Counted from the first letter of the stretch, positions 100 through 48,875 are shown. The stretch is DNA of 64,000 nt from an uncultured Prevotellaceae bacterium (GCA_947307015.1 CAMZHV010000001.1:12846-76845); one strand, 5' to 3'. Notes: a model not told the origin generated them from the sequence alone. Made by a program: numbers and translations.

Positions 100-3000
100 T
101 TATCGCCTTGACGTATTATAATTATATAGGAGGCCGCCGTTGGCTGTCTGACCTGCTGCATCGATGGCGATAGTGGTCTTCTGCGAGTTATTGAAGAGGC
201 GGACGTGGGCATGTCCGTTGGCGTCGAGCTTCAGTTCGGGATTCCAATAGAGCGTACGGCGGTAGTCCTTCTGACCTTCCTTGGGCGGATTGCGCTGATA
301 GTCGGGGCTGTAGAAATCCTCCTGGAAGGCAAAGCCGTCGAGGATGTAACGGCGGTCGCGGTAGGTGGCACGCTGGGAACCGTCCTTATAGCGATGGATG
401 TCCACGATGACTTCGGGCTGGTTGCTCTGCTCGTAACGCTCGTCGCCCTCACGGCGCGGCGAATAGTCGGTGTAGATGTAAATCTTGTCGAGGTTGCTCA
501 GCAGGCTGAAGCGCGCGCGCTCCAAAGGACCGTACCAGAAACTTGCAGGTTTGCCGTCTAAATAAGTCTTTGAGGTGTAGTGACGGTACATGCCCATATC
601 GCCTATCTTGACGCCTGTTATGCCACTGGTGGCATTGGAATAACCGCCGAAGAATCCAGCATCCATGGACTCGTTATGGGCTTGGTAAGCATCAATGACG
701 TAGGCGGGTTTGGAGAGGTCGACGTGCCGTAAGCCGCCGTGGCGGGTGCGCACGGTGATCTGGTCGAGCAGATGAGTGCCGTCGGTTAGCAGACGGGGTG
801 ATAAGTAGGTGGTATCGCGCAGTGGCGCATTGTGTACCTGATAATAGGTATAGGGCTTAATCCAGCGGGGGTAGGGAAAGTTGAGACGCACATAGTATTC
901 GGGGAAATCGCCGAGGCGCCCTGCCATGAGGTCGTATTCCGTCTGCCTGTCTATCTGTACCCAAGCGTGTGGTTTACGACGGTGTAATCCATCCCATTTC
1001 TTCTTCCATTTGGTGGTGTCGCTGGCACCGAGGAAGAATTCGCATTGCCCCTCGAAGCGCGGCAGATCGATTTGGAAAGTGCCGTTTGTGGTCTCCGTCT
1101 CGCCGACGAGGAAGTCGTTGGGGTCGTAGAGATTGATGAACTCGGCGTGTACGCGCACCTCCTTCTTCACGGTGCCACGCTCGATATAACGCCGTGCGGC
1201 GAGTTTGCGTTGCCTGCGCTGCTGCTCCTGATAGAGACGGTTGGTGCGGAAGCTGAGAACGTTGTAGTCCGTAGATTCCCAGTCGTTCCCTTGTAGAGAA
1301 TATATGCCATGCCAAGTGTCGGAGATGGCACCTATATTACTGCGCTGCTCGTAGATAGGGCTGAGGTTCCAAGCCATATTCCTGCGGCTATAGCCCACGG
1401 GCAAGCCTTGATGAAAATCGTTGGCATGGAAAGCTGTCGGACGGCCGTCGGCCTCGAAGAGCGGGTTCGACTGTTGCTCGCTCAGCGAAGGCGTCTGTTC
1501 CATCATGAAGCGCTCATGGTCGGCAGCCACATCTTGGAAAATATTGTCGCGCTCTTCCATAAGGCTCCAGTAGCGGTTCACGGTGCCGGTGACAATTTGC
1601 GTGTGTTCGGCGGGATGCGTGATGTCCCAAGCTCCCTTGATGGCCATATCCTGCCAGTTGAAGCGTCGCCAGCCCTGTGTCAGCATGAGCAGGTCGAGGG
1701 CGCGTCGGTGTTCCTCGTCGTCTTTTTCAAAGAAGTAATCGGGTTGCGGCACGAAGCCCTTGATTTCTGAGGCTAAGAGCAGCTCGGTCATGATGTTTCC
1801 GCTGTCGAAGGTGTTGTCGGAGTGGATGACATCGCGTACTGTCAGCGACACGGTTTGATCGGGCATGAGATGGGCAGAAGTGACGTCGAAGTCGATGCGT
1901 TCGAACGGCTCATACTGCTCCTTCTGACCCGTGAACTGTAGCGTTGGCTGCATGAGCTCAGGGTTGGTGACGAAGAAGAGTCGGTCGGCGTAGATATGAC
2001 CGATGGAATCGAAGACGGTGATCTGGTAGACGCCTGGGGAAGACTCTCCCCCCGCCCTCCCTGTTAGGGAGGGAGTAAAATGAATTTGAGAATGGGGGGT
2101 GGGGCTCATTTCTTCGAAGAACGCCACCTTCCCTTCGTTCATCACGGTGATGCCCAAGGGCTGTTGGGCAGCGAGACCTGCTGCGGCGATGTCGAAGAGC
2201 CAGTCTCCTGTAATCGTGTCACGGCGCACCTGCAAAGCCACGCCTTCGGACTTGATGTCTTTGATGTCCTGACTGACGGTCACTGGCTTCTTTGTGTCCT
2301 TGGGCTGCTCGTCGGGTGTGAAAACTGCCTCGTATTTCACCCCTTCCTGGGGCGTGAAGATGAAGGTGCCGCGGCCTCGGTTCTCAGTTATCACGGAGTC
2401 TACTACCTCGCCTTGATCGTTTTTGACTTTTATGATGTCTTTTTTCACGCGAAGGCATAGTGAGCCTTCCTTCATTTCACCCTCACTCGTTGCCGCCTCA
2501 AAGGCTACGCGGCAGGGCACACCTGCAACGAGATTGCCTCCCTCGGGGAAGAGGGAGAGGCGCAGTTCGGGGGCTTTAGGTTCGCTCTTAAAGTAGCGGC
2601 GCAACGGACGGAAGGTCATATCGCGGTAGAAATCACCCTCCTCCTTGGGTTTGTCGTAGACGGGGAAGACGCGCGAGTAGAGCTTCTCGTAATCGCGGAA
2701 GAAGTCCTTGGCCATTGCCTTGTTGTAGAAGCTGTATTCCGTTGACCACGCATGGAAGTGCTCCGTCTGCCCCCAGTTGAGCTGCCAGCGCGTGTAGGCA
2801 CGAAGCTCGAAGTAACCGGAATAGAGCGTGTCGGGCAGGGCAAAGAAGCCGTGACCGCGGCCTTCCTTCATCTCCACCAGCTTACGTTCGACCATGTAGC
2901 CGTCGTGGTTCCATAGCTCGGCATACAGCACGCGGGAGATGCGGCTTGGTTTGTCGTCGTTCGTACGGCGGGTGTAGGCAGCAAACCAGATGGTGTCGCC

Positions 3001-11912: not shown

Positions 11913-13802
11913 ATGGCAGATAGTTTAAACATCCAAGAGCTGGAGCAGGTGGTGGTCCGCTTCTCCGGCGACAGCGGCGACGGTATGCAGCTCGCCGGCA
12001 ACATCTTCTCCACGGTATCGGCTACCGTGGGCAACAGTATCTCCACGTTCCCCGACTATCCCGCCGACATCCGCGCTCCGCAAGGCTCGCTGACGGGTGT
12101 GAGCGGCTTTCAGGTGCACATCGGTGCTGCTCAGGTCTATACGCCTGGTGACCAGTGCGACGTCTTAGTGGCAATGAACGCAGCAGCCTTCAAGACACAA
12201 CTGCGTTATGCCAAGCCTAACGCCACGATCATCATCGACACCGACTCCTTCACGAAGAAGGACCTCGACAAGGCGGAATTCAAGACCGACGACTACATCG
12301 CTGAGATGGGCGTTGACCCCGACCGTGTCATCGCCTGTCCGCTGACCACGATGGTCAAAGACGCGCTGGCCGACACGGGTATGGATGCGAAGAGCGTGCT
12401 CAAGTGCCGCAATATGTTTGCGCTGGGCCTCGTCTGCTGGCTGTTCAGCCGCGACCTGAACGTGGCTTTCAACTTCCTGCGTGAGAAGTTCGCCAAGAAG
12501 CCGGCCATCGCCGAGGCTAACATCAAGGTGATTCAGGCAGGTTACGACTACGGTCACAATACGCACTCCAGCGCGATGAACGTCTATCGCATTGAGTCGA
12601 AGGAAAAGAAGCCCGGACGCTACATGGATATCACAGGCAACAAGGCCACAGCTTACGGCTTCATCGCTGCTGCCGAGAAGGCTGGCTTGCAGCTCTACCT
12701 CGGCTCCTATCCCATCACCCCTGCTACGGATGTGCTTCATGAACTTTCGAAGCATAAGAGCCTAGGTGTGAAGACGGTGCAGTGTGAGGACGAAATTGCA
12801 GGTTGCTCATCGGCTGTTGGTGCAAGCTTTGCCGGTGCATTGGCTGTGACCTCCACCTCCGGTCCTGGCATCTGCCTCAAAAGCGAGGCAATGAACCTGG
12901 CGGTCATCATGGAATTGCCACTCGTCGTCCTCGACGTACAGCGCGGAGGTCCTGCTACGGGTCTCCCCACGAAATCGGAACAGACGGACCTCTTGCAGGT
13001 ACTCTTCGGTCGCAACGGTGAGAGCCCGATGCCTGTGATGGCAGCTCTCTCACCAACGGACTGCTTCGCAGCGGCTTACGACGCTTCGAAGATGGCGTTG
13101 GAGCACATGACGCCCGTCGTGCTCTTGACCGATGCTTTCATCGCCAACGGCAGCGGCGCCTTCAAACTGCCTGACCTCGAAAAGATGCCTGCCATCAAGC
13201 CGCCGTATGTGCCCGAGGAGCTGCGCGGCAGTTGGACGCCTTATATGCGTGCTGAAAACGGCGCCCGCTACTGGGCTGTACCGGGGCGCGAGGGCTTTGA
13301 ACATATTCTCGGCGGACTGGAGAAGGACAACAAGACAGGTGCCATCAGTACCAATCCCGAGAACCACGACCTCATGACGCGTCTGCGTGCTGAGAAGGTG
13401 GCCAAGATCCAAGTCCCCGACCTCGAAGTGGAAGGTGATACCGCAGACGCCGACCTGCTGATAGTAGGCTTCGGTAGCACCTACGGACATCTGCACGCGG
13501 CAATGGATGAACTGAGAGGAGTGGCGGCCCCCCATTCGGCCCCCAGGGGGGCTACGGATGTTAATCCCTATAAAGTGGCTCTTGCACAATTCCGTTATCT
13601 GAATCCCTTACCCGCAAATACAGCAGAGGTACTGAAGCGTTACCCAAAAGTAGTTGTCGCCGAACAGAACATGGGACAATTGGCTTCATATCTTCGCATG
13701 AAAATTGATAATTTTGTTCCCAAACAGTTTAACCAAGTCAAGGGCCAACCTTTCGTTGTTAGCGAATTGGTAGAAGCATTCAAGCAAATATTGGATGAAT
13801 AA
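11913..13802 (+). CDS. korA: 2-oxoglutarate/2-oxoacid:ferredoxin oxidoreductase subunit alpha (fused gamma-alpha type)
   Basis: 629 aa. FSGDSGDGMQLAG..., PITPATD and QRGGPATGLPTKSEQTDL motifs. Carries an in-frame module (VAAPHSAPRGATDV) at 13526-13560. Confidence 0.9.
   Translation: MADSLNIQELEQVVVRFSGDSGDGMQLAGNIFSTVSATVGNSISTFPDYPADIRAPQGSLTGVSGFQVHIGAAQVYTPGDQCDVLVAMNAAAFKTQLRYAKPNATIIIDTDSFTKKDLDKAEFKTDDYIAEMGVDPDRVIACPLTTMVKDALADTGMDAKSVLKCRNMFALGLVCWLFSRDLNVAFNFLREKFAKKPAIAEANIKVIQAGYDYGHNTHSSAMNVYRIESKEKKPGRYMDITGNKATAYGFIAAAEKAGLQLYLGSYPITPATDVLHELSKHKSLGVKTVQCEDEIAGCSSAVGASFAGALAVTSTSGPGICLKSEAMNLAVIMELPLVVLDVQRGGPATGLPTKSEQTDLLQVLFGRNGESPMPVMAALSPTDCFAAAYDASKMALEHMTPVVLLTDAFIANGSGAFKLPDLEKMPAIKPPYVPEELRGSWTPYMRAENGARYWAVPGREGFEHILGGLEKDNKTGAISTNPENHDLMTRLRAEKVAKIQVPDLEVEGDTADADLLIVGFGSTYGHLHAAMDELRGVAAPHSAPRGATDVNPYKVALAQFRYLNPLPANTAEVLKRYPKVVVAEQNMGQLASYLRMKIDNFVPKQFNQVKGQPFVVSELVEAFKQILDE
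13526..13560 (+). repeat. Type-B GC module, left end (GGCCCCCCATTC + GGCCCCCAGGGGGGCT + ACGGATG), in frame in korA
   Basis: Differs at 3 of 35 positions from the corresponding end of the 90-nt element in thrC (28400-28434, reverse complement). Confidence 0.85.
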
Positions 13803-14170
13803 TGAGCTACGACTACCAGACTGCCGATTCTGCTCTATATCACATATTGCGTGAAAATGCTGCATACAATAGGAATCACCCCACAGAAGCAGAAGCACTG
13901 CTTTGGGAATTCTTGGGTGCGGATGGACTGGGAGTTACATTCAAAAGCCAACATATTATAGGTGATTATATCGCGGATTTTGTATGTTTGACTTCCAAGT
14001 TAATCGTTGAACTCGACGGTGGATACCATCAACTCGCACAACAGCAAATAAGTGATGAGCAACGTACAGAATGGTTAGAAAGCAGAGGCTTCAAAATCAT
14101 CCGATTCACAAACGAAGAACTATTTCACAACGTTGACAAAGTATTAGATACGATAAAAGATAATCTATAA
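13802..14170 (+). CDS. DUF559 / Vsr-like endonuclease-domain protein
   Basis: 122 aa. DFVCLTSKLIVELDGGYHQ...EQRTEWLESRGFKIIRFTNEEL matches the DUF559 (PD-(D/E)xK, Vsr-like) pattern. TAATG overlaps with the korA stop and with the korB start. Confidence 0.85.
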   Translation: MSYDYQTADSALYHILRENAAYNRNHPTEAEALLWEFLGADGLGVTFKSQHIIGDYIADFVCLTSKLIVELDGGYHQLAQQQISDEQRTEWLESRGFKIIRFTNEELFHNVDKVLDTIKDNL

Positions 14171-15231
14171 TGAATACTAATTCCAATGCAAACGTAGCCC
14201 CCTCGGGGGCCGAAGGGGGGGCCGCTACTTGGATGGCTTCCGATTATAAGAAAGGGCAGCCGAGGTGGTGCCCGGGATGCGGAGATCATTTCTTCCTGGC
14301 ATCTTTGCATAAGGCGCTGGCCGAAATTGGCGTAGCGCCCAAGGACATCGCCGTCATCAGCGGTATCGGTTGCAGCAGTCGTCTGCCCCATTACATGGCC
14401 ACCTACGGCATGAACACCATTCACGGTCGTGCTGCCGCCATCGCCACTGGTGCGAAGGTGACGAATCCCAAGCTGGATGTGTGGCAGATCAGCGGCGACG
14501 GCGACGGCTTAGCCATTGGCGGTAACCATTTCATCCACGCCAACCGCCGAAACATCGACCTGAACATAATCCTGCTGAACAACCGTATCTACGGTTTGAC
14601 GAAGGGTCAGTACTCGCCCACCAGCCCTCGTGGCTTCGTCTCGAAGTCCAGCCCTTATGGCACTGTCGAGGATCCCTTCCGCCCCGCTGAGCTATGCTTT
14701 GGTGCCCGTGGTCATTTCTTCGCTCGTGCCGTGGCCACTGATGCTCCTGGTACCATCGAGGTACTGAAGGCTGCCCATGACCATAAGGGTGCCAGTGTCA
14801 CCGAGATCCTTCAAAATTGCGTCATCTTCAACAATGGTACGCACGATAGCGTCTATGACAAGGACGGCCGCAAGAAGAACGCCATCTACGTGCGTCACGG
14901 CGAGAAGCTCGTCTTTGGCGAGAACAACGAATTCGGTCTCGTGCAGCAGGGCTTTGGTCTCAAGGTCGTGGAGATTGGCAAGGACGGCTACACGCTCGAC
15001 GACGTTCTTGTCCACGATGCACACTGCGAGGACAACACGCTGCAGCTGAAGCTCGCCCTCATGGGCGATGGCGACGGTTTCCCCATCGCCCTCGGCGTCA
15101 TTCGCGATGTGGCAGCGCCCACCTATGATGATGCTGTCACCGCACAGATCGCAGAGGTCAGCGCCGCGAAGAAGTATCACAACTTCGCCGAGCTCCTCGA
15201 AACAAACGATATTTGGGAAGTTCGCGAGTAA
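14170..15231 (+). CDS. korB: 2-oxoglutarate/2-oxoacid:ferredoxin oxidoreductase subunit beta (TPP-binding)
   Basis: 353 aa. WCPGCGDH and GDGDGLAIGGNH motifs. An alternative in-frame ATG at 14233 lies just after the type-B module. Confidence 0.9.
   Translation: MNTNSNANVAPSGAEGGAATWMASDYKKGQPRWCPGCGDHFFLASLHKALAEIGVAPKDIAVISGIGCSSRLPHYMATYGMNTIHGRAAAIATGAKVTNPKLDVWQISGDGDGLAIGGNHFIHANRRNIDLNIILLNNRIYGLTKGQYSPTSPRGFVSKSSPYGTVEDPFRPAELCFGARGHFFARAVATDAPGTIEVLKAAHDHKGASVTEILQNCVIFNNGTHDSVYDKDGRKKNAIYVRHGEKLVFGENNEFGLVQQGFGLKVVEIGKDGYTLDDVLVHDAHCEDNTLQLKLALMGDGDGFPIALGVIRDVAAPTYDDAVTAQIAEVSAAKKYHNFAELLETNDIWEVRE
14194..14223 (-). repeat. Type-B GC module, right end (GTAGCCCCCTCGGGGGC + CGAA + GGGGGGGCC)
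   Basis: Inverted partner of 13526-13560. Resembles the other end of the thrC element (28345-28373). Read as VAPSGAEGGAA if korB starts at 14170. Confidence 0.8.
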
Positions 15232-15238
15232 TTTATTC

Positions 15239-15366
15239 ACAACGAATTTCACGAATTAAACGAATTCAGGTTGCGCAGTGTAAGAATGATCTTCGAATAG
15301 GTGTCATTCGTTATCAATCTTTGCTACACATAGAAAGTAATTCGTAAAATTCGTGTAATTCGTTGT
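15239..15366. repeat. AT-rich inverted-repeat element; each arm is three ACGAATT-type repeats
   Basis: Left arm acaacgaatttcacgaattaaacgaattc (15239-15267). The right arm (15337-15366) is its reverse complement, 26/30 by hand alignment. 69-nt spacer. Confidence 0.7.
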
Positions 15367-21157: not shown

Positions 21158-21916
21158 TCAAGAGGCTTCTGCTTTCAGCAAGGCTTCAGCGATGATGAGG
21201 TCGAAAGGTGTGGTGATCTTGATATTCTCACGGTTGCCATCGACGAGGGTGACGGGATGCCCCAGGGCTTCGACGACAGAGGCATCGTCGGTAAAGGTGT
21301 CGCAGTAGGGCTGCTTGTAGGCTTGGAGAAGGAGGGAGTGCGTGAAGACCTGTGGGGTTTGGACAAGGCGCAGCTTCGAGCGGTCAATGGTAGCGGACAC
21401 CCCCTCCCCAGTGTGAGAGGGAAGAAGTTGGCGCACGGTCTCGACGACAGGGACGACGGGGACGACGGCGGCGTGCTCACGGGCAGCTTCGAAACAACGA
21501 CGGATAACATCAACGGAGACGAAGGGGCGCACGCCGTCGTGGACAGCAACCAAACTCCCCTCCCTCACGGGGGCGGGGGAGAGGCTTCTTAACCCGTTCT
21601 TTACACTATGAAACCGTGTTTCGCCGCCATCGACGATAGTATGTGGCAGGGTGAAAGCGTGCTGACGGCAGAGGTCGCGCCAAAAGTCCTGCTGGTCATG
21701 TGGCAGGACAAGCACGATGCGTATGCCAGAAATAGCACGCTCGAAAGCTTCAAGCGTGTGCATCAGCACGGGACGTCCCCCGATAGGAAGGAACTGCTTA
21801 GGCAGGTCGCTGCCCATCCGCAGTCCTTTGCCTCCGGCAACGATGATGACAGACTCTCCCCCCGCCCTCCCTATTAGGGAGGGAGTAGATTGTTTTGCTA
21901 TTGGATTATCTTCCAT
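21158..21916 (-). CDS. ispD: 2-C-methyl-D-erythritol 4-phosphate cytidylyltransferase
   Basis: 252 aa. [43 protein letters not shown] and LVQTPQVF motifs. The N-terminal 22 aa are encoded by repeat spacer + arm. Confidence 0.9.
21555..21585 (-). repeat. Short type-A variant in frame in ispD
   Basis: Reverse complement GCCTCTCCCCCGCCCCCGTGAGGGAGGGGAG. Translated as [10 protein letters not shown]. Confidence 0.6.
21852..21885 (+). repeat. Type-A module (left arm of the DJ-1|ispD doublet), translated in ispD
   Basis: GACTCTCCCCCCGCCCTCCCTATTAGGGAGGGAG. 33/34 identical to the reverse complement of 21951-21984. Confidence 0.9.
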
Positions 21917-21950
21917 AAAAAGATAATAATCAGTTCTTGTTAGGTAACCG

Positions 21951-21984
21951 CTCCCTCCCTAACAGGGAGGGCGGGGGGAGAGTC
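21951..21984 (-). repeat. Type-A module (right arm of the DJ-1|ispD doublet)
   Basis: CTCCCTCCCTAACAGGGAGGGCGGGGGGAGAGTC. Ends 5 nt from the DJ-1 stop codon. Confidence 0.9.
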
Positions 21985-21989
21985 TGTTT

Positions 21990-22532: not shown

Positions 22533-22543
22533 AGTAATTTGAC

Positions 22544-22572
22544 AATTATACGATTTTACGATTTAACAATTA
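22544..22572 (+). repeat. ACGATTT tandem motif (contains the 16-mer ACGATTTTACGATTTA) upstream of the DJ-1 gene
   Basis: The identical 16-mer recurs at 23387-23402 in the same orientation. Confidence 0.75.
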
Positions 22573-22586
22573 CGGGAATTGATAAG

Positions 22587-23376: not shown

Positions 23377-23380
23377 ATGC

Positions 23381-23408
23381 AATTTTACGATTTTACGATT
23401 TACAATCT
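23381..23408 (+). repeat. ACGATTT tandem motif (16-mer ACGATTTTACGATTTA) directly upstream of the pdxJ -7 box
   Basis: Second copy of the 22550-22565 16-mer. Confidence 0.75.
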
Positions 23409-23446
23409 ACTATTTATTTGTTTTTTTCGGGTAAATAAGCAAATTA

Positions 23447-23473
23447 TCTATTGTCCATTGTCCATAATCCATT
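23447..23473 (-). repeat. Solo ATTGTCC-heptamer arm related to the argB element
   Basis: tctattgtccattgtccataatccatt; compare 54284-54317. Confidence 0.55.
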
Positions 23474-23482
23474 AAAAAGACG

Positions 23483-27309: not shown

Positions 27310-27342
27310 ATAACGACCTTTGAGAGGGGAAAAGGAGGTTAT
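27310..27342. terminator. Possible bidirectional hairpin between convergent genes
   Basis: ataacgaccttt / aaaggaggttat arms (10/12 complementary), 9-nt loop. Overlaps the thrC stop. Confidence 0.3.
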
Positions 27343-28799
27343 TGCTGGAGGAGGAAAGCTTTGAAGTCGGCAAAATCCTTGCTCATGGCGACCGACTTCT
27401 TCTCGCCGCGCATGAAAGCCTGCAGCTTTTCGGGGATGGGAAGATCGATGCCGAGGATGCGGTCTACGGTGTCCTTGAATTTGGCGGGATGAGCGGTCTC
27501 AAGGAAGACGCCGACTTCGCCGTCTTGCAGCTGCTCTTTCAAGGCGCGATAACCGCACGCGCCGTGAGGATCAAGGATATAACCCGTGCGAGCATAACAA
27601 TCACGCATTGTCTCGGCAATCTGGTCGTCGGTGTAGGTGGCGCCGGAGATAAGGGGCCTCTCCCCCAACCCCTCCCCCGAGAGGGAGGGGAGTGGCTGTG
27701 CATAGCCTCTTTTACTTAACACTTCCATGACATCCTCACGACTGTAGAGGTCGAGGATGCGGGCGAAATTTGAGGGATCACCGACATCCATTGCATTGGC
27801 AATGGTCTGTTTCGAGGCTTTCGGCGTATACACACCTGTCTGGAGGTAGTTGTAGAACACGTCGTTGGCGTTGTTCGCCGCAATGAAACGTTTCACGGGC
27901 AGCCCCATGACGTGGCCGAACAGTGCCGAACAGATATTGCCGAAATTGCCGGAGGGGACGCAGATGACACAATCGGCTGCCCCACCGCCAACCCCTCTTC
28001 TCGTCAGGGAGGGGATAAGTTGCGCGTAAGCATAGAAATAATAAAACGCCTGCGGCAGGAAGCGGGCCACGTTGATGCTGTTGGCCGAGGTGAGGCGCAT
28101 GTGGGTATTCAGCTCCTGATCCATAAACGCCGACTTCACCAGTGCTTGGCAGTCATCGAAGACGCCATCGACCTCAATGGCCGTGATGTTTTGGCCGAGC
28201 GTCGTGAACTGACACTCCTGAATGGGCGACACCTTACCCTTCGGATAGAGCACATAAACATGTATACCCTCCACGCCGAGGAAGCCGTTGGCCACAGCCG
28301 AACCAGTGTCGCCGGAAGTGGCTACGAGTACATTAACCATGGAAGCCCCCCCTACTGCCCCCGAGGGGGCTTCTATTGTTTTGCGATTAGAGGACTTTAC
28401 ATCCGTAGCCCCCTCGGGGGCTGAATGGGGGGCCAACATATACTGAAGCAGGCGTGCCATAAATCTCGCACCCACATCTTTAAAAGCCAGCGTGGGGCCG
28501 TGGAAGAGCTCGAGGGCATAGATATTGTCCTCGACTTTCACGACAGGACAGTCGAAGGAGAGGGTGTCATAGACGATACGACGGAGGGCATCGGCTTCGA
28601 CATCTTCGCCGAAGAAGGCATCAGCGACGCGATAGGCCACCTCCTGGAATGTGAGGCCTGCCATTTCGTCCCAGAACGATTCAGGCAGTTGCTTGATGAC
28701 TTCGGGCATATACAGGCCGCGATCTTCGGCAAGGCCGCGGACGACAGCATCACGCAAAGTAGCGCGGGCAGCGGTATGGTTGGTGGAGTAGTAGAGCAT
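27339..28799 (-). CDS. thrC: Threonine synthase
   Basis: Start moved to MLYYSTNH. FKDVGARFMARLL, ATSGDTGSAVANGF and VPSGNFGN motifs. Three in-frame repeat insertions. Confidence 0.93.
   Translation of the reverse strand: MLYYSTNHTAARATLRDAVVRGLAEDRGLYMPEVIKQLPESFWDEMAGLTFQEVAYRVADAFFGEDVEADALRRIVYDTLSFDCPVVKVEDNIYALELFHGPTLAFKDVGARFMARLLQYMLAPHSAPEGATDVKSSNRKTIEAPSGAVGGASMVNVLVATSGDTGSAVANGFLGVEGIHVYVLYPKGKVSPIQECQFTTLGQNITAIEVDGVFDDCQALVKSAFMDQELNTHMRLTSANSINVARFLPQAFYYFYAYAQLIPSLTRRGVGGGAADCVICVPSGNFGNICSALFGHVMGLPVKRFIAANNANDVFYNYLQTGVYTPKASKQTIANAMDVGDPSNFARILDLYSREDVMEVLSKRGYAQPLPSLSGEGLGERPLISGATYTDDQIAETMRDCYARTGYILDPHGACGYRALKEQLQDGEVGVFLETAHPAKFKDTVDRILGIDLPIPEKLQAFMRGEKKSVAMSKDFADFKAFLLQQ
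27656..27692 (+). repeat. C-tail + hairpin module variant in frame in thrC
   Basis: GCCTCTCCCCCAACCCCTCCCCCGAGAGGGAGGGGAG. Translated as PLPSLSGEGLGERP. Confidence 0.65.
27979..28015 (+). repeat. C-tail + hairpin module variant in frame in thrC
   Basis: GCCCCACCGCCAACCCCTCTTCTCGTCAGGGAGGGGA. Translated as PSLTRRGVGGGA. Confidence 0.6.
28345..28434. mobile_element. 90-nt type-B doublet (REPIN/MITE-like), in frame in thrC
   Basis: Two inverted type-B ends (28345-28373 and 28400-28434) separated by 26 nt. 30 codons (PHSAPEGATDVKSSNRKTIEAPSGAVGGA) inserted between LQYMLA and MVNVLVATSGDTG. Confidence 0.8.
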
Positions 28800-28811
28800 A
28801 CTATAAAAAAA

Positions 28812-28844
28812 CCACCCCAACCTTCCCTGTGAGGGAGGGGGTGG
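28812..28844 (+). repeat. Type-A variant (arm of the apgM-like|thrC doublet)
   Basis: CCACCCCAACCTTCCCTGTGAGGGAGGGGGTGG. Lies 12 nt upstream of the thrC ATG. Confidence 0.7.
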
Positions 28845-28861
28845 AATGATTTGTATAATGG

Positions 28862-30172
28862 TTATTGATTATCTAATGTATCTACTCCCTCCCTCACAGG
28901 GAGGGTAAGGGGTGGGTCTGTCATAAACAACTTAATGAATTCATCGCCTTCGATGAGACCATAGGCGCCTTCGCGGGCAGCATCCTCGTCGAAGGTCTGC
29001 ACACTATCTGGCTCTATGCCGGGGTAGTAGATGGCAAAGGGGATGGGCTCGGCGGTGTGAGTGCGTAGCTCGCAGGGCGTGGGATGGTCGGGTAAAAGAG
29101 CAATGGCGAGGTCATCCGTCATTTCGAACGCATGAAGGATAGGCTGAATGAGCCGATGGTCGAGGTCTTCGATGGTCTGGAGCTTGAGGGGGACTGAACC
29201 ATCGTGACCAGCCTCGTCGCTGGCTTCGACGTGGAGATAGACGAAGTCATCACCGCTGCGAAGGGCCTCGATGGCAGCCTGTGCCTTACCCTCGAAGTTA
29301 GTGTCATAGAGACCTGTAGCACCAGGGACGTTGATGACGCGCAACCCGGCATAATGTCCGATGCCGCGGATGAGGTCTACGGCCGTGATCACGGAGCCAC
29401 GACGAATCTGCGGGAAGCGTTCGGTGAGCGGCACCATCTGCGGACGATAGCCGCCGCCCCATGGCCAGATGCTCGAAGCCATATCTTTACCCTCGCGCGC
29501 GCGTTCTTTATTTAATTCATGCAAAGGCAGAAGTTCTTGGGAACGGCGAATGAGGTCGCATAGCAGGTCGGCGGTCTCAGCGGGGGACAGGACCTCTCTT
29601 TGCTTCCCCTCAAAGGGGAGGGTGGAATCTTCAGCGCAGGTATCTGCCGAGGGGACCTTGTCGCGCCATGTCTGAAGGGGCACATCGTGTGGCGGTGTAC
29701 ATTTAAGGTGCTTGTTGCCGCCTTTGATGACCAACAGGTGACGGTACTGCACGCCCGTATAGAAATGTACGCGGTCGTTGGCTAAGTGTTCGTTGAGGTA
29801 TCGGATGAGGACGTCGCCTTCCTCCGTTTCGAGGCGTCCGCAGGAGTGGTTCTTGATGATGTCACCCTCGATGCAAACGAGGTTACAGCGTAGGGCAAGG
29901 TCACCTTCTTCCAGTTCCACGCCTATGCTGGCGGCTTCCAGCGGTCCACGACCCTCGTAAACGACGTGTTGGTCGTAGCCCATGATGCTGCTGTTGGCCA
30001 CTTCACTACCCGGATGAAAACCATCGGGAATGGTCTTCAACAATCCGCAACGACCATTACGCGCCAACCAGTCCATGGCGGGCGTGTCGGCGTATTGAAG
30101 GAGTGTCTTGTCACCGAGTGAAGGCACGTGCCAGTCGGCCATGCCGTCGCCAAGGATGATTAGATGTTTCAT
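28862..30172 (-). CDS. Cofactor-independent phosphoglycerate mutase-like (apgM family) protein; probable non-canonical homoserine kinase of the thr operon
   Basis: 436 aa. MKHLIILGDGMAD... metalloenzyme-superfamily N-terminus. Sits between thrA and thrC. The C-terminus runs into a repeat arm. Confidence 0.8.
   Translation of the reverse strand: MKHLIILGDGMADWHVPSLGDKTLLQYADTPAMDWLARNGRCGLLKTIPDGFHPGSEVANSSIMGYDQHVVYEGRGPLEAASIGVELEEGDLALRCNLVCIEGDIIKNHSCGRLETEEGDVLIRYLNEHLANDRVHFYTGVQYRHLLVIKGGNKHLKCTPPHDVPLQTWRDKVPSADTCAEDSTLPFEGKQREVLSPAETADLLCDLIRRSQELLPLHELNKERAREGKDMASSIWPWGGGYRPQMVPLTERFPQIRRGSVITAVDLIRGIGHYAGLRVINVPGATGLYDTNFEGKAQAAIEALRSGDDFVYLHVEASDEAGHDGSVPLKLQTIEDLDHRLIQPILHAFEMTDDLAIALLPDHPTPCELRTHTAEPIPFAIYYPGIEPDSVQTFDEDAAREGAYGLIEGDEFIKLFMTDPPLTLPVREGVDTLDNQ
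28885..28918 (-). repeat. Type-A module (arm of the apgM-like|thrC doublet), forms the C-terminus of the apgM-like protein
   Basis: Reverse complement GACCCACCCCTTACCCTCCCTGTGAGGGAGGGAG. Translated as DPPLTLPVREGV. Confidence 0.85.
29592..29624 (+). repeat. Hairpin module variant in frame in the apgM-like gene
   Basis: CCTCTCTTTGCTTCCCCTCAAAGGGGAGGGTGG. Translated as STLPFEGKQRE. Confidence 0.5.
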
Positions 30173-32700: not shown

Positions 32701-34656
32701 TCAAGAGGCAGCGGCCTCCTGCGGCGTCGAAAGCGCGATTTCCTCTTCCTCCATCATCTGATGGAGCACGCGGCCCACGACGCTGTCGGGGATGTCTGGG
32801 AAATGGAAGTCGAGGAATGATGTCGGCTTCTGCTCGGCAACGAAGGCGAGGATGCGCTGGCGCACGAAAGCGTCGTCAATGCGCGGCAGCGGGCTCCGCT
32901 CGGTGCAGTTGTCGCAATGTCCGCAGTCTTGAGCATCCTTCTCGCCGAAGTAACGCAGGAGGTAGCGGCTGTGGCATTCCGAGGTCTCGAGGTAGCCGAT
33001 CATCGTCTGAATGCGTTGTTCGAGTTCGCGCTTGCGGTCGCGATAAACGGATGGCGGCAGCACGATGTCGTCACTCTCGACGCGCCGCTGTCTGAAGGTG
33101 ATATAGGGGATGAACTTACGCGGCACGAACTGCAGGATATGCCGGCGGCTGAGCTCCACGAGCTGCTCGCTGACCTCTGCCTCACCTACGCTTAGGGCGT
33201 GGGCTATCTCGCCTTCGTCGATGTAGGCATACTCGCTGAAGATGCCTGTACACGTCCGCAGCAGGTGCTGCAACACGCGCTCCATCAGGGGCGGAAGATG
33301 ATAGGTGTAGAGCTCTTCGCGGTGGCAGCTCATCATCACGCGGCTGTGGTTTTCCTCCGCATCGGCCCATTCGATATAGCCGGCTCGCGACAGCAGCTGC
33401 AAGGCGTTGTAAGCCCGCACGGGAAAATGGTGGAACGTGCGACAGAACTCCTCCAGATTGAACTCTCGCGTGATGCCAAAGCCGTCGCCCATGGCTAACT
33501 GCAGGAAATAGCAGGCATCCTCGTAGACCTTCCTGACGTAATCCTCTGGCGGGTAGGTGTCTTCGATGCGGCGGCGTAGCACAGCGATGGAGCGGCTGTC
33601 GTAGAGAAGCACGGCATGAGCCTGCTGGCCATCGCGGCCGGCACGCCCTGCCTCTTGGAAATACGCTTCGGGGGAGTCGGGGACGTCGGTGTGGACGATG
33701 AGCCGCACGTCGGCCTTGTCAATACCCATGCCAAAGGCGTTTGTGGCCACCATCACGCGGATCTCGCCGTGCTGCCACGCCGCCGCCCGCTCGTTCTTCT
33801 CGCGATTCGTCAGGGCGGCATGGTAGTGAGTTGCCGTGATGCCCTGCGACACGAGCCACGAGGCCAGTTCGCGCGTAGCCTGACGGCTGCGGGTATAGAC
33901 GATGGCAGAACCGGGCACGCGGATAAGCAATTCCTGCAGCTCCTGTTCACGCGACTGTCGGATGCGGCGGACGGAATAGATCAGGTTCTTGCGTTCGAAG
34001 CTCATCCGCTTGACATTAGGCTCACGGAAGCCTAATTGCCGTTGGATATCTTCGACGACGGGCGGTGTGGCGGTGGCCGTCAGGGCAAGCACTGGCGCGT
34101 CGGGCAGCAGCTTGCGGATTTGGGAAATCTCGGTGTAAGACGGGCGGAAGTCGTAACCCCATTGCGAGATGCAGTGGGCCTCGTCCACCGTGATGAAGCT
34201 TACCTGCATGTGTCTGAGCTTGGCCTGAAAAAGCTCCGAGGACAGGCGCTCGGGCGAGACATAGAGGAATTTGTAATTGCCAAAAATGCAGTTCTCCAAC
34301 GCCGTAATCACCTCGTCGCGCGTCATGCCCGTATAGACGGCAGTGGCCTTGATGCCTTTCTCGCGGAGGTGCATCACCTGATCCTTCATCAAGGAGATCA
34401 GCGGGCTGATGACCAGGCACAACCCCTCCTGCGCCAATGCCGGCACCTGAAAGGTGATGCTCTTGCCGCCGCCCGTAGGCATAAGCCCTAAGGTATCCCT
34501 TCCCGCCCCAATACTCTCAATGATGTCCTGCTGAATACCACGGAAGGAAGAGAAACCGAAATAATGGTGTAAGATAGAACAATAAACAGACTCTCCCCCC
34601 GCCCTCCCTATCAGGGAGGGAGCAGTCACATGCGCCAGTTGCTCCTTTCCGTTCAT
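32701..34656 (-). CDS. recQ: RecQ-family ATP-dependent DNA helicase
   Basis: 651 aa. FRGIQQDII (Q motif), MPTGGGKS, DEAHCISQWGYDFRP, ATNAFGMGIDK and QEAGRAGRDG motifs. The N-terminal 23 aa are encoded by spacer + repeat arm. Confidence 0.92.
   Translation of the reverse strand: MNGKEQLAHVTAPSLIGRAGGESVYCSILHHYFGFSSFRGIQQDIIESIGAGRDTLGLMPTGGGKSITFQVPALAQEGLCLVISPLISLMKDQVMHLREKGIKATAVYTGMTRDEVITALENCIFGNYKFLYVSPERLSSELFQAKLRHMQVSFITVDEAHCISQWGYDFRPSYTEISQIRKLLPDAPVLALTATATPPVVEDIQRQLGFREPNVKRMSFERKNLIYSVRRIRQSREQELQELLIRVPGSAIVYTRSRQATRELASWLVSQGITATHYHAALTNREKNERAAAWQHGEIRVMVATNAFGMGIDKADVRLIVHTDVPDSPEAYFQEAGRAGRDGQQAHAVLLYDSRSIAVLRRRIEDTYPPEDYVRKVYEDACYFLQLAMGDGFGITREFNLEEFCRTFHHFPVRAYNALQLLSRAGYIEWADAEENHSRVMMSCHREELYTYHLPPLMERVLQHLLRTCTGIFSEYAYIDEGEIAHALSVGEAEVSEQLVELSRRHILQFVPRKFIPYITFRQRRVESDDIVLPPSVYRDRKRELEQRIQTMIGYLETSECHSRYLLRYFGEKDAQDCGHCDNCTERSPLPRIDDAFVRQRILAFVAEQKPTSFLDFHFPDIPDSVVGRVLHQMMEEEEIALSTPQEAAAS
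34589..34629 (+). repeat. Type-A module (arm of the recJ|recQ doublet), translated in recQ
   Basis: GACTCTCCCCCCGCCCTCCCTATCAGGGAGGGAGCAGTCAC. 39/41 complementary to 34689-34729. Confidence 0.9.
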
Positions 34657-34688
34657 TAACTATCAAAAAATGAAAACAAATCTTGAAG

Positions 34689-34729
34689 GTGACTGCTCCC
34701 TCCCTTTTAGGGAGGGCGGGGGGAGAGTC
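34689..34729 (-). repeat. Type-A module (arm of the recJ|recQ doublet)
   Basis: GTGACTGCTCCCTCCCTTTTAGGGAGGGCGGGGGGAGAGTC. Ends 6 nt from the recJ stop. Confidence 0.9.
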
Positions 34730-34735
34730 TTCTCC

Positions 34736-36857: not shown

Positions 36858-38282
36858 CTATTCCACTTCGTAGCCGGCAATCTTAGCCATGCCCGGAGCT
36901 ATCTCGATGTTGTCGATACGGCCTTGGAAGATCTCGGTGCCAGGGCCAACAGCAAAGATGGGGACGTAGCCGTTGGAGTGTCCGCCGCTGGCCCAGCTGA
37001 TCATGGCGACCTCAGAGAGGATGTGCTTCGTGGTCTCGCAGAGGTCACCGATGCGGTCGCGCACAGCCTTGCTGTCGGGGTCGGCGTTGCTTTCAGTGAC
37101 GGCTTTCTCGATGTCGTTCCAACGACGCTGTATGCGCTCCTGCTGGGCATCCTTGAGCTTGATGCCTGCTCCGAAGCCCATGAGGTCGCGCAGCTGCTTC
37201 TCGACAGCAGTCCACGTGAACTTCTTCGGTGCCTTTTTGTATTGGTCGCGCAGGATGGACTTGAACTCATTGATGCTGCGACGCTGGTACTTGAGCAGGT
37301 CGGTGTGGATCTCGTAGGGACCTACGCCCATAGCCATACCGCCCGTCTCATGGTCGGCGCTGATGACGATGATGGTCTCGTCGGGGTGCTGCTGATAGAA
37401 TTCGTAGGCGACCTTGACAGCCTTGTCCATATCAAGCACCTCGTTGATGGCGGTGCCGATGTCGTTGCTGTGGCATGCCCAGTCAATCATGCCGCCTTCA
37501 ATCTGGAAGAAGAAGCCATCGGTGCCTTTATTCGAGAGATAGTTGATGCCGGCACGAACAATCTGCTCGAGGGTGAGGTCGTCCTTGTTCTGGTCGAGAG
37601 AGTAGGGCAGCTGATCGCTGGTGAGATGCTCGTTCCTCTTGTCGCTCTGGAAGAGGATGAGCTTGTCAGCCTTCAGGCCTTTCTTCTGATACTCCTTGTA
37701 GCCTTTTAGGATGGTGTAGCCTGCAGCCTTAGCCTGCTCATGCAGCGAAGGGCCGCCGTCCTTGACATGGGGCGTATGGAAGTCTGCTGCGGAAAAGAAG
37801 TCGAAGCCGCTCTTGCACAAGTCCTGACCAATCTCGTAGTACATGTTACGGTTGGGCTGGTGGCCGTAGAAGGAAGCGGGCGTAGCGTGCGTGATGGATA
37901 CTGTCGTGGCGATGCCCACGGCTTTGCCAGCTTTCTTGGCCCAGGTGGCAATGCTGGTGCAGGGCGTCTCCAGGTCTTCAAGCACGCCGATGGCGCCGTT
38001 CTTGGTCTTCTTGCCCGTAGCGAGCGCCGTGCCGCCAGCAGCGGAGTCGGTGACGCCATTGGTGGCAGAATAGGTGTTGACAAGTCCCACAACGGGGAAG
38101 CTGGCCATGAGGATAGGTTCGATACCAATCTTGCCCTTCAAGGCTGCCTGATAGGTCTCGGTGACGTTGATCTGGTTGACGCCCATGCCGTCGCCGATGA
38201 AATAAAATACATACTTGACCTCAGCGGAAGCCGTGAGGGCGATGAGTGTTGCCAATAGGCAACTGAGAAGACGATGTTTCAT
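36858..38282 (-). CDS. Alkaline phosphatase (PhoA family)
   Basis: 474 aa with a signal peptide. FIGDGMG, TDSAAGGTALATG (active-site Ser) and ADHETGG motifs. Confidence 0.9.
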   Translation of the reverse strand: MKHRLLSCLLATLIALTASAEVKYVFYFIGDGMGVNQINVTETYQAALKGKIGIEPILMASFPVVGLVNTYSATNGVTDSAAGGTALATGKKTKNGAIGVLEDLETPCTSIATWAKKAGKAVGIATTVSITHATPASFYGHQPNRNMYYEIGQDLCKSGFDFFSAADFHTPHVKDGGPSLHEQAKAAGYTILKGYKEYQKKGLKADKLILFQSDKRNEHLTSDQLPYSLDQNKDDLTLEQIVRAGINYLSNKGTDGFFFQIEGGMIDWACHSNDIGTAINEVLDMDKAVKVAYEFYQQHPDETIIVISADHETGGMAMGVGPYEIHTDLLKYQRRSINEFKSILRDQYKKAPKKFTWTAVEKQLRDLMGFGAGIKLKDAQQERIQRRWNDIEKAVTESNADPDSKAVRDRIGDLCETTKHILSEVAMISWASGGHSNGYVPIFAVGPGTEIFQGRIDNIEIAPGMAKIAGYEVE

Positions 38283-44967: not shown

Positions 44968-45237
44968 ATGTCCAAAGAAAGCTTTTGGCGCCGTGCCATC
45001 AACCTCTACTATGATGGTTTCCGACAGATGACGCTGGGTCGCACGCTCTGGCTCATCATCGGCATCAAGCTTTTCGTCATCTTTGTTATCCTCAAAATCT
45101 TCTTTTTCCCCGATTTCATCGGGCAAAATGCCGAAAAAGGCAAGGAAGCAGAGTTCGTGGCTGGGGAGTTGAGTAAAAGAACAGACCCACCTCCTGCCCT
45201 CCCTGTGAGGGAGGGTGATAATACCTGTCAAGAATAA
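44968..45237 (+). CDS. DUF4492-like small membrane protein preceding cydAB
   Basis: 89 aa. WRRAINLYYDGFRQMTLGRTLWLIIGIKLFVIF, position upstream of cydA. The C-terminal part is encoded by a repeat arm. Confidence 0.75.
   Translation: MSKESFWRRAINLYYDGFRQMTLGRTLWLIIGIKLFVIFVILKIFFFPDFIGQNAEKGKEAEFVAGELSKRTDPPPALPVREGDNTCQE
45184..45217 (+). repeat. Type-A module (left arm of the DUF4492|cydA doublet), translated
   Basis: GACCCACCTCCTGCCCTCCCTGTGAGGGAGGGTG. Translated as [11 protein letters not shown]. Confidence 0.85.
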
Positions 45238-48228: not shown

Positions 48229-48803
48229 TGATTGTACGATTGCCGACGGCATATCTGGGGCCTGTGTCGTGGTATGCGGCATGGGCGAAGGCCGACGCAG
48301 TGATCGTGGAACAGCACGAGCACTACGTCAAGCAGACTTGGCGCAATCGCTGCCGCATCGCTATGCCCGACGGACCGCAGGACCTGATCGTACCCGTGGA
48401 GGCGGCAGCCAATCACACGCCTATCCGCGACATACGCCTCAGCGACCACGGCAACTGGCGCCACCACCACTGGAGCGCCCTGCGCACGGCCTACGGTAAG
48501 AGCCCCTTTTTTGAATACTACGCCGACGACTTCGCGCCCCTCTATGCACAGCGCTTCACCTTTCTCATCGATTTCAATGAGGCGCTGCGCGAGGTCGTCG
48601 GGCAGTTGTTGGATCTCGATGTTCCCGTACGCCGCAGTACGGCCTACGCCCCCACAGTACCATTCGCCGACTTGCCCGTGCCGGCAAAACATTACTATCA
48701 AGTCTTCAACCAACGTTTAGGCTTCCTGCCTAACCTAAGCATCGCCGACCTTCTCTTCAACCTCGGTCCTGAAGGCCTCCTCTACTTGACGTGTACTGAA
48801 TAA
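48225..48803 (+). CDS. WbqC-family protein
   Basis: 192 aa. PTAYLGPVSWY...QTWRNRCRI...HW.ALRTAYGKSPFFEYY pattern. ATGA overlap with cydB. Confidence 0.75.
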   Translation: MMIVRLPTAYLGPVSWYAAWAKADAVIVEQHEHYVKQTWRNRCRIAMPDGPQDLIVPVEAAANHTPIRDIRLSDHGNWRHHHWSALRTAYGKSPFFEYYADDFAPLYAQRFTFLIDFNEALREVVGQLLDLDVPVRRSTAYAPTVPFADLPVPAKHYYQVFNQRLGFLPNLSIADLLFNLGPEGLLYLTCTE

Positions 48804-48853
48804 GCTGACACTTTCTTGATTTCAAGAGTGTGTCAGCTTATTCAGTACACGTC
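48788..48853. terminator. 66-nt near-perfect palindrome (24-bp perfect arms) between convergent genes; probable bidirectional terminator
   Basis: gacgtgtactgaataagctgacac / gtgtcagcttattcagtacacgtc. The 18-nt spacer contains tcttga-tt-tcaaga. The left arm encodes the last 5 codons and stop of the WbqC-like gene. Confidence 0.5.
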
Positions 48854-48875
48854 AGATTATAGGTCAAGGGAAAGG

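Follow-up and report, generated by a model that had tools for sequence, protein, structure and literature searches.

In-frame GC-rich repeat units in a Prevotellaceae threonine synthase gene and their association with DUF559 nuclease cassettes

How a gene for an essential enzyme can carry several stretches of repeat-derived DNA within its reading frame, and by what means such DNA may have reached it, is the question raised by thrC, the threonine synthase gene in a 64,000-nucleotide stretch of DNA from an uncultured Prevotellaceae bacterium (GCA_947307015.1, CAMZHV010000001.1:12846-76845; hereafter referred to as the window). The window has a guanine plus cytosine (GC) content of 54%, and its closest relatives are metagenome-assembled genomes (MAGs) of uncultured Prevotellaceae from the rumen and the hind-gut; the organism is thus of the rumen type and not a Bacteroides, the taxon to which an earlier note on this DNA had turned for comparison. 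According to that note, made from the sequence alone, this thrC is of the usual kind save for repeat DNA inserted in frame at three places. The gene is maintained, and both the coordinates and the translations of the insertions are borne out by codon alignments.

The explanation favoured here, with a probability of about 0.7, is that mobile repeat units are tolerated in the loops of the enzyme and that the largest insertion is a form of a cassette otherwise carrying a DUF559 nuclease gene. The thrC inserts are copies of a dispersed, GC-rich family of units of ~35 nt, each made up of a C-rich block, a short loop, a complementary G-rich block, a linker of 2-4 nt and a second G-rich block, which is the architecture of the BoxC/PIT (potential intrastrand triplex)/'triplex motif' (TM) repeats. 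Inserts (1) and (2) are single units and insert (3) is an inverted doublet, the doublet being the counterpart without an open reading frame (ORF), resembling a miniature inverted-repeat transposable element (MITE), of a ~460-490-nt cassette with the same ends around a DUF559 gene. The DUF559 nuclease may act on the structured ends and mobilise both the cassettes and the ORF-less doublets. Selection would then act as a filter, in-frame and stop-free copies in length-tolerant loops surviving to be translated as Pro/Ser/Gly-rich loops, and partial deletion would erode them, resulting in a turnover of loops by cycles of insertion and decay.

Threonine synthase and its three insertions

The gene and its inserts, numbered from the first letter of the window, are as follows.

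27339..28799, minus strand: thrC, threonine synthase, an intact ORF of 486 aa with three repeat-derived insertions
28345..28434, minus strand: insert (3), 90 nt at site 1, which follows reference residue 125; two G5/C5 three-block units (type B) arranged as an inverted doublet
27979..28015, minus strand: insert (2), one three-block unit, degenerate in part, at site 2, which follows reference residue 239
27655..27692, minus strand: insert (1), one three-block unit at site 3, which follows reference residue 325
Predicted junction peptides of the inserts in ThrC: LLQYMLAPHSAPEGATDVK, TIEAPSGAVGGASMVNVLVATSGDTGSAVANGFLGVEGIHVYVLYPK and GYAQPLPSLSGEGLGER

The 486-aa product matches the Pfam families Thr_synth_N and PALP, scores 281.3 bits against the TIGR00260 thrC equivalog (cut-off 167.1) and has E. 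coli ThrC (1VB3) as its top match in the PDB (E 2.6e-99). The lysine motif FHGPTLAFKDVG, which binds the pyridoxal phosphate (PLP) cofactor, is invariant, as are the SGDTG and SGNFGN loops, and an AlphaFold2 (AF2) model with a mean predicted local distance difference test score (pLDDT) of 70.7 has a template modelling (TM) score of 0.83 to 1VB3, normalised to the target. By its equivalog score, its PLP lysine motif and its ThrC fold, the protein is a threonine synthase. The gene is the last of an operon with the order thrA, a phosphoglycerate-mutase-like gene (hereafter pgm) and thrC. Its product is ~53 aa above the Prevotellaceae norm of 433 aa, and alignment to the 433-434-aa ThrC proteins of Segatella buccae (L065) and Xylanibacter ruminicola (L043), which serve as the references, places all of the extra length at the three sites after reference residues 125, 239 and 325. 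Outside these sites, the protein is 80-90% identical to its relatives (comparison loci are denoted by L and homologous proteins by P numbers). The ratio of non-synonymous to synonymous divergence (dN/dS) against relatives is 0.048-0.093 over 427 core codons, with a proportion of synonymous differences (pS) of ~0.6, close to saturation of such sites; purifying selection on the host protein is strong. Two further assemblies encode an identical 486-aa ThrC, their DNA being 99.8% identical to the window over 5461 nt, and an assembly error is therefore excluded. ThrC presumably stays functional despite its inserts.

Insert (3) is translated as APHSAPEGATDVKSSNRKTIEAPSGAVGGA(S), between LQYML and MVNVLVATSGDTG. 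The unit of insert (2), CCCCTCCC..GAGGGG TT GGCGGTGGGG, gives the peptide IPSLTRRGVGGGA, and that of insert (1), CTCCCCTCCCTC TCGG GGGAGGGG TT GGGGGAGAGG CC, gives LPSLSGEGLGERP. Following the mapping onto an alignment and a structure that the earlier note had proposed, all three inserts are found at gaps in the alignment of ThrC to E. coli ThrC and in predicted AF2 loops. Residues 126-152 (insert (3)) and 374-379 (insert (1)) are modelled as low-confidence coil (pLDDT <50), and insert (2) as a loop at 268-276 following a helix at 244-267 (pLDDT ~67-68); in this model of moderate confidence, the inserts appear as loops of ThrC. Their codons are probably translated as disordered loops rich in Pro, Ser and Gly.

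The two hairpin cores of insert (3) are 37 nt apart and not 26 nt as first described, and extended arms of 27 nt leave 35 nt between them. The GTAG start attributed to one hairpin is found before one thrC type-B unit (28403-28406) and before both units of the kor locus described below; the other thrC unit has GAAG. Folded alone as RNA, the 90-nt doublet reaches -60.2 kcal/mol (z -5.7). The single inserts (1) and (2) fold no better than composition-matched shuffles (z -1.1 and -0.1), and their assignment is backed by sequence-family membership, not by structure.

The three sites are hot spots of length variation. Among the 120 closest ThrC homologues (435-586 aa), internal length variation falls into blocks after reference residues 125, 239 and 325, the only other being a four-column block at 328 in seven sequences. 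More than 100 relatives have inserts at the three sites, and the comparison of relatives suggested in the earlier note finds each insert present in some and absent from others at the same site. Insert (2) is missing from most of them; P0113 has a repeat unit at none of the three sites, and L009 lacks one at sites 1 and 3. At site 3, most of the 120 homologues have a single QPLPSLxGGxGGGS unit, which is related to insert (1).

At least three repeat-derived insert families occur at these sites. The family APHSAPEGAT..APSGAVGGA corresponds to type B, and SPLSRKGESL..QPLPSLTGG constitutes a third doublet family. The family SPNPSPVRAGNE..SPLPNRGGAGEG occurs at each of the three sites in one lineage or another: P0002, P0037 and P0084 have it at site 1 and P0045, P0080, P0084 and P0101 at site 2, and extended or nested forms are found in P0116 (sites 1-3) and P0118 (sites 2-3). 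The exact type-B core has no match in 80 thrC loci, the units of the relatives differing slightly. Erosion is evident in L001, which retains the left half of the type-B doublet only, in L009, which retains six nt of the doublet (TCCTCT), and at site 2 of L002, where two doublet fragments (AGCCAG and GAAGGGGCC) are left. The insert peptides change by codon substitutions and in-frame deletions. Three or more repeat families appear from these comparisons to have entered the ThrC sites independently and then to have eroded. In the left half of the type-B doublet (28345-28389), the window and L001 are unlike at no more than 3 of 45 nt, with 1 of 15 third codon positions changed, against a synonymous divergence of ~0.6 in the host gene; a fresh insertion, gene conversion by other copies of the repeat or a constraint acting on the DNA itself could lie behind this near-identity.

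Repeats of other kinds are found at the same places. ThrC site 1 of L007 (1660-3186) carries a five-fold tandem DELTSKQV repeat, and the pgm-thrC spacers of L007, L011, L003 and L001 hold AT-rich micro- or minisatellites (CCTTAAAT-, CTTCTTAAA- and TTTCAATA-like); the same loops and spacers therefore accept other repeat kinds as well.

Repeat units and DUF559 cassettes

The units, the doublets and the DUF559 cassettes form one element family. The link is seen within the window at the junction of korA and korB, where type-B units bound a DUF559 gene.

13526..13573, plus strand: type-B unit bounding the kor segment on the left and read in frame within korA (AAPHSAPRGATDVNPYK)
13574..14176, plus strand: low-GC segment between the type-B units, with the last 76 codons of korA and the DUF559 gene
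13802..14170, plus strand: DUF559 gene (Vsr-like PD-(D/E)XK endonuclease), 122 aa, its start overlapping the korA stop
14177..14222, plus strand: type-B unit bounding the kor segment on the right, immediately before korB or in the korB N-terminus

As proposed in the earlier note, insert (3) is an inverted doublet with the ends of this segment, its arms matching them at 85% over 48 nt and 80% over 46 nt. The segment had been described as a cassette; type-B ends do bound it, but it is not a simple insertion, since it includes the last 76 korA codons in low-GC DNA. GC is ~0.38-0.45 here, or ~0.40 for the segment between the units, where the flanking DNA has 0.55-0.63, or 0.59. The 3' end of korA thus seems to have been replaced by foreign sequence, through co-conversion or through capture of a gene end. 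In L093, korA is empty at the left-unit site (ELRDKGHKVALAQF). The korA gene of the sister-strain locus L089 holds a full type-B doublet (AAPHSAPEGATDAKSSVNNGKEAPSGAVGGAS) at a place where korA of the window reads ALADTGMD, and the doublet is read there in the frame that thrC uses, which speaks for mobility of the doublet. Stop and start codons overlap at the kor locus as TAATG and ATAATG; L089 has the kor arrangement of the window, and L093 has another DUF559 cassette at the korA|korB junction with a native, high-GC korA tail.

The DUF559 protein of the window matches Pfam PF04480 (E 9e-31), the PDB entries 3HRL (E 2.2e-28) and 3R3P (I-Bth0305I; E 6.3e-7) and a homing-endonuclease model of PADLOC (E 4e-6). 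A metagenome scan with a DUF559 alignment provided 80 loci, 67 of which could be evaluated for their ends, with 221 shifted controls for comparison. GC-rich inverted arms of at least 14 nt flank DUF559 in 42 of the 67 loci (5 of the 221 controls) and arms of at least 20 nt in 36 (none of the controls); the median length of the cassettes is 489 nt. The similarity of the ends follows that of the DUF559 proteins (Mantel r 0.43; 0 of 2000 permutations). The DUF559 ORF is intact in 79 of the 80 loci. The residues E31, W35, D85, R88, R101 and N104, all outside the motifs used for retrieval, are invariant, and the E-x-D-G-x-x-H motif, which served in the retrieval, is found in all 80 sequences. That DUF559 is an active enzyme which moves the ends and the doublets is judged a little better than an even bet on these sequence data.

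Two ~460-nt cassettes, L090:930-1389 and L091:386-847, have ends that are essentially those of the thrC doublet (AAGCCCCCCATTCAGCCCCCGAGGGGGCTAC ... GAAGCCCCCTCGGGGGCAGTAGGGGGGGCTT): the left arm matches save for the outermost 1-2 nt in both, and the right arm is identical in L090 and 2 nt off in L091. Their DUF559 proteins are 65% (L090) and 63% (L091) identical to that of the window. Insert (3) is therefore the ORF-less counterpart of a DUF559 cassette. In L090, the type-B cassette lies between a glutamyl-tRNA-synthetase-like ORF (47-973) and a Kdo-transferase-like ORF (1388-2665), both named by eye, and the tail of the upstream ORF, KAPHSAPEGATNAK followed by the stop, is encoded by the left end of the cassette. 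Cassettes seem to be located mostly at gene junctions, co-oriented with the operon.

A further junction with alternative states lies directly upstream of thrC.

28807..28919, no strand assigned: type-A inverted doublet of 113 nt with an AT-rich spacer, between the pgm-like gene and thrC
28862..30172, minus strand: cofactor-independent phosphoglycerate-mutase-like gene of the thrA-pgm-thrC operon, with a repeat-derived C-terminus (TDPPLTLPVREGVDTLDNQ, then the stop)

The doublet folds at -61.8 kcal/mol (z -8.3) and contains the last 19 codons and the stop of the pgm-like gene. Where the window has this ORF-less 113-nt doublet, L086, L005, L169 and L170 have a DUF559 gene between terminal inverted repeats, L083 has a single unit, and the junction is empty, with overlapping stop and start codons, in L002, L004 and L010. 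The units bounding DUF559 in the four loci are inverted and belong to the SPNPSPVR.../...PLPNRGG family. In three of these loci, DUF559 is fused in frame to the pgm-like gene via a translated repeat unit (L086:1239-2942, 567 aa; L169:3-1646, at least 547 aa; L170:650-2443, 597 aa), and the nuclease may be expressed by read-through from host genes. L170 has a full doublet between the pgm-like domain and DUF559 and another within the pgm-like domain; in-gene copies are found in both its pgm-like gene and its thrC. Nine near-identical units of L170 are clustered in the thr operon around DUF559, and none is found in the remaining 2.8 kb.

The family is dispersed over the window as a whole. Type-A cores (CCCTCCC N3-12 GGGAGGG) occur eight times against none expected and type-B cores three times against 0.03 expected. 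A regular-expression census of strict three-block units gives ten in the window, inserts (1) and (3) included, and nine in L170, insert (2) being only a loose fit to the pattern. At ~15 units per 64 kb, the four units in the 1.46-kb thrC have a Poisson probability of ~4e-4. Units of the window are also read through in korA, the longest korB ORF, the C-terminus of the pgm-like protein, a 1434-aa ORF and the longest ispD and recQ-like ORFs. Of the 25 GC-rich doublets in 1.0 Mb of fetched DNA, 13 are placed well within long ORFs, in a sample that is biased to thr loci and in which three of the 13 are the same thrC allele. The type-B copies seen are all in the same frame, but only two or three of the six frames are open (two in the type-B doublet) and the independent sites are few, and no bias of orientation or frame is claimed. 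The family is a dispersed repeat with in-frame, stop-free copies in unrelated genes. Its other members in the window are listed below.

2041..2082, minus strand: single type-A unit within the 1434-aa ORF, a candidate further in-frame insertion
21851..21985, no strand assigned: type-A doublet of 135 nt at the ispD 5' end, one arm overlapping the longest ispD ORF
34588..34730, no strand assigned: type-A doublet of 143 nt between recQ-like and recJ-like genes, one arm overlapping the longest recQ-like ORF
45183..45224, plus strand: single type-A unit, intergenic, upstream of cydA

Other sequence features of the window were observed in addition. ispD (21158-21916) contains two more in-frame, GC-rich, hairpin-like segments at 21400-21421 (PSHTGEGV) and 21558-21583 (LSPAPVREG), possibly old insertions. 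The Pfam matches of an alkaline phosphatase ORF (36858-38282) and a diaminopimelate-dehydrogenase-like ORF (61510-62409) are split into two stretches each, and the ATG-called RibF-like ORF (60578-61309) is without the first ~70 positions of FAD_syn; further insertions or start-site problems are possible in these genes. Short tandem or inverted AT-rich motifs, a class distinct from the GC-rich units, are found in intergenic DNA at 54216-54312, 23431-23475, 22535-22573, 23380-23402 and 15239-15366, in the forms of AATGGACAATGGACAATGG with its complement, TACGATTT runs and an AATTCGT-type inverted repeat. A 33-nt near-perfect palindrome (94% complementary, 2-nt loop) between convergent genes at 48787-48854 is probably a bidirectional terminator.

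Known repeat systems and rival explanations

In their architecture the units come closest to the BoxC/PIT/TM repeats (PMC4666352), which are likewise dispersed, three-block units of ~35 nt. The E. coli unit has the form CCCTCTCCC-TTGA-GGGAGAGGG-TTA-GGGTGAGGG, to be compared with CCCCTCCC-TAACA-GGGGAGGGG-TTA-GGGGAGGGG in L170 and CCCCTCCCTC-TCGG-GGGAGGGG-TT-GGGGGAGAGG in thrC of the window. Both form close inverted doublets pairing a unit with a TTA linker and one with a CCG linker, as in thrC of L170 (2869-2902, TTA; 2933-2966, CCG); the doublets of the window differ in this respect, with the linkers GAAT/AGTA and C/TAA. Both are also tied to locally variable regions of the genome. The intrastrand-triplex (TMECO) repeats occur in E. 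coli and in over 260 further genomes, give stable triplexes in vitro and are found where the genome is unstable, their origin and spread being unexplained; for E. coli K-12, Holder et al. (2015) reported the TM units to be always intergenic and without an associated mobility function (PMC4666352). Unlike these, many of the units described here lie inside coding sequences, in frame, and flank DUF559. Type B is a G5/C5 variant without a description in the BoxC/TM paper, in which Bacteroidetes are not mentioned (PMC4666352). The likeness is one of block architecture in the sequence, triplex formation being a property of the described motifs.

In their location the units resemble the Rickettsia palindromic elements (RPEs; Ogata et al. 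2000, summarised in PMC10969869), which are palindromic selfish repeats found in frame in unrelated housekeeping genes, with a constant reading frame, at positions tolerated by the fold, as seems probable for the units, and present or absent between relatives. RPEs differ in being ~100-150 bp long, AT-rich, found in reduced alphaproteobacterial genomes and without an associated gene, whereas the units described here measure 35-100 nt, are rich in GC, return at the same three loops and come with a candidate partner protein; given the opposite base composition, sequence homology between the two is unlikely. Similarities extend to repetitive extragenic palindromes (REPs), their doublets (REPINs) and the REP-associated tyrosine transposases (RAYTs) (PMC3337134, PMC3733652, PMC8266576): short palindromic units, inverted doublets folding into long hairpins, no target-site duplication, a single-copy flanked gene beside many ORF-less copies, and some copies inside genes or supplying stop codons. 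The gene flanked here, however, encodes a PD-(D/E)XK Vsr-like nuclease (DUF559) and not a Y1/HUH transposase, GTAG is found in the type-B variant only and there in part, and a third G-block is not a feature of REPs.

Bacterial MITEs (PMC10969869) share with the units a size below 200 bp, terminal inverted repeats, a longer ORF-carrying relative with the same ends and occasional in-frame fusions with host ORFs, but here no DDE transposase parent and no target-site duplication are seen. With the Vsr-like EDxHD homing endonucleases (I-Bth0305I; PMC3239194, PMC2677866) DUF559 shares a profile that detects the catalytic domain 3R3P, a free-standing location at the same gene junction in diverged genomes and a low-GC tract reaching into the neighbouring gene, as a co-conversion tract would. 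It differs from them in its size of ~120 aa, without a NUMOD or helix-turn-helix (HTH) DNA-binding region, in not residing in an intron or intein, and in being bounded by structured inverted ends and accompanied by ORF-less doublets. In-frame repeat insertion is already known from RPEs (PMC10969869) and some REPs (PMC3733652), and thrC is a new instance of such insertion. An incomplete literature search found no publication linking DUF559 or YcjD to inverted repeats, MITEs or BoxC, and none describing such repeats in Prevotella; the link to DUF559 and the intragenic location of BoxC-type units appear to be unreported.

E. coli K-12 has a single DUF559 gene, ycjD (NCBIfam PRK09767; L171, NC_000913.3 1351100-1351800). 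Its stop codon lies inside a degenerate BoxC-like unit, and a full TMECO-type unit is found 154 nt downstream, towards fabI. BoxC is said to have been first described at this ycjD/fabI locus. On the fabI side, a partial duplicate of the ycjD 3' end and the full BoxC/TMECO unit lie within 190 nt. The gene is present in 3378 of 5426 complete E. coli genomes (62%) and absent from 38%. Elsewhere, ycjD is replaced by the eefRABCD island, reportedly in at least two independent events (PMC12817139). E. coli was considered as a clean presence/absence test and rejected, as the island fills the site when ycjD is absent and no precise empty site is definable. That DUF559 of the YcjD-type, Vsr-like kind is a dedicated partner of BoxC/PIT/triplex-motif repeats across phyla, whether as their mobiliser or as a homing parasite, is put forward tentatively, at slightly less than even odds.

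Several observations weigh against the favoured explanation. About one third of the DUF559 loci are without inverted ends. The window's intergenic doublet spacer, compared with the DUF559 3' end of L086 and L005 for signs of a deletion in place, gave an AT-rich alignment that is not convincing. The ends flanking DUF559 in L170, L086 and L005 have TCA/GC/TT linkers, and the thrC doublets of L170 pair TTA with CCG, so that the latter cannot have arisen simply by recent deletion from the cassette next to them. No target-site duplication was seen at six junction pairs, a comparison limited by divergence and by erosion, 'empty' sites in relatives often being eroded remnants with junctions that are not clean. 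Within these limits, the absence of target-site duplications excludes a DDE-type mechanism, without discriminating between a mobilising and a homing role of DUF559. The AF2 model is of moderate confidence only (mean pLDDT 70.7), and a second thrC or a RAYT beyond the 64-kb window is possible. DUF559 has no known transposition or cleavage activity, and a 120-aa nuclease alone is not a known transposase.

The doublets and units might be primary and spread by other means, such as an unseen transposase, or structure-induced breakage with template switching or gene conversion, DUF559 being a free-standing homing endonuclease that lives as a parasite at the centre of a doublet which it recognises as its target. 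The relationship of DUF559 to a proven homing-endonuclease domain, its presence at pgm|thrC and at korA|korB in diverged genomes whose end families differ, the resemblance of the kor segment to a co-converted low-GC tract and the conserved spacer and linker types of the ORF-less doublets all speak for such a parasite, and the co-variation of end families with DUF559 lineages is compatible with specific recognition in either model. Yet the spread of the doublets would be left unexplained, no other mobility gene is found in the window, type-B cassettes with identical ends occur at three unrelated junctions, and the clustering of units around DUF559 in L170 is as expected from local hopping of a master copy; we regard a homing parasite, the main rival, as unlikely. 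The earlier note had hinted at RAYTs, insert (3) then being a REPIN and the single units REPs, moved by a Y1/HUH transposase encoded elsewhere in the genome. In its favour are the folding of the doublet as one long hairpin and CGTAG before three of the four type-B units; the lack of target-site duplications agrees with REPINs, and intragenic REPs are documented (PMC3733652). But none of the ~41 long ORFs of the window has a Y1 transposase (Y1_Tnp, PF01797) or any other transposase domain, 42 of 67 loci have DUF559 and not a RAYT between the ends, type-A units are without GTAG, GTAG-REPs have been reported from Proteobacteria and Cyanobacteria and not from Bacteroidetes (PMC3733652), and the three-block architecture fits BoxC/TM and not REPs. 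A RAYT origin is quite improbable on this evidence.

Tolerance of the inserts would be only apparent if thrC were a decaying pseudogene or if the inserts were removed as introns or inteins, the outcomes that the earlier note had named as refuting, and the gene is indeed known from the sequence of the 64-kb window alone. The indirect evidence gives these outcomes no support and makes them highly improbable: the ORF is intact within the thrA-pgm-thrC operon, dN/dS is 0.05-0.09, the catalytic motifs are all invariant, more than 100 relatives have inserts at these sites, and the insert peptides evolve by codon changes and in-frame deletions. The inserts, at 12-30 aa each, have no intein blocks or intron features, and no Rfam family matches them above threshold, sub-threshold matches being generic hairpins of microRNA models only. 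The degeneracy of insert (2) and the unexceptional folding of the single units might suggest ordinary low-complexity loops resembling repeats by chance or compositional convergence, or else assembly chimeras. This is barely credible in view of 80-100% DNA identity over 30-48 nt to copies elsewhere, the same 90-100-nt doublets in unrelated genes, zero core matches expected by chance and the same allele in three independent assemblies.

Implications for loop evolution and repeat mobility

The more than 100 ThrC variants constitute a natural experiment in insertion tolerance, with three loops of a PLP enzyme having room for 7-80 additional residues. The variants suggest that protein loops can evolve by capturing selfish DNA that then erodes, and that this happens in a gut lineage that is free-living and GC-rich and not only in the reduced genomes of Rickettsia. 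The repeats also inflate and fragment gene calls in rumen MAGs, as in the pgm-DUF559 fusion ORFs and in odd N- and C-termini, and annotation should recognise them. The statistically solid association with DUF559 provides a concrete, testable candidate partner for BoxC/PIT/TM repeats, E. coli K-12 with its ycjD included. If DUF559 is indeed the dedicated partner of these repeats across phyla, the cassettes would represent a new class of nuclease-borne mini-element of ~490 nt, with structured inverted ends and a 120-aa nuclease. Repeats that in thirty years have shown no mobility activity would then have a mechanism, and it could be tested in K-12, where ycjD lies beside a BoxC copy by fabI. ORF-less doublets and single ends would then spread and repeatedly rewrite the variable loops of essential enzymes in the rumen Prevotellaceae.

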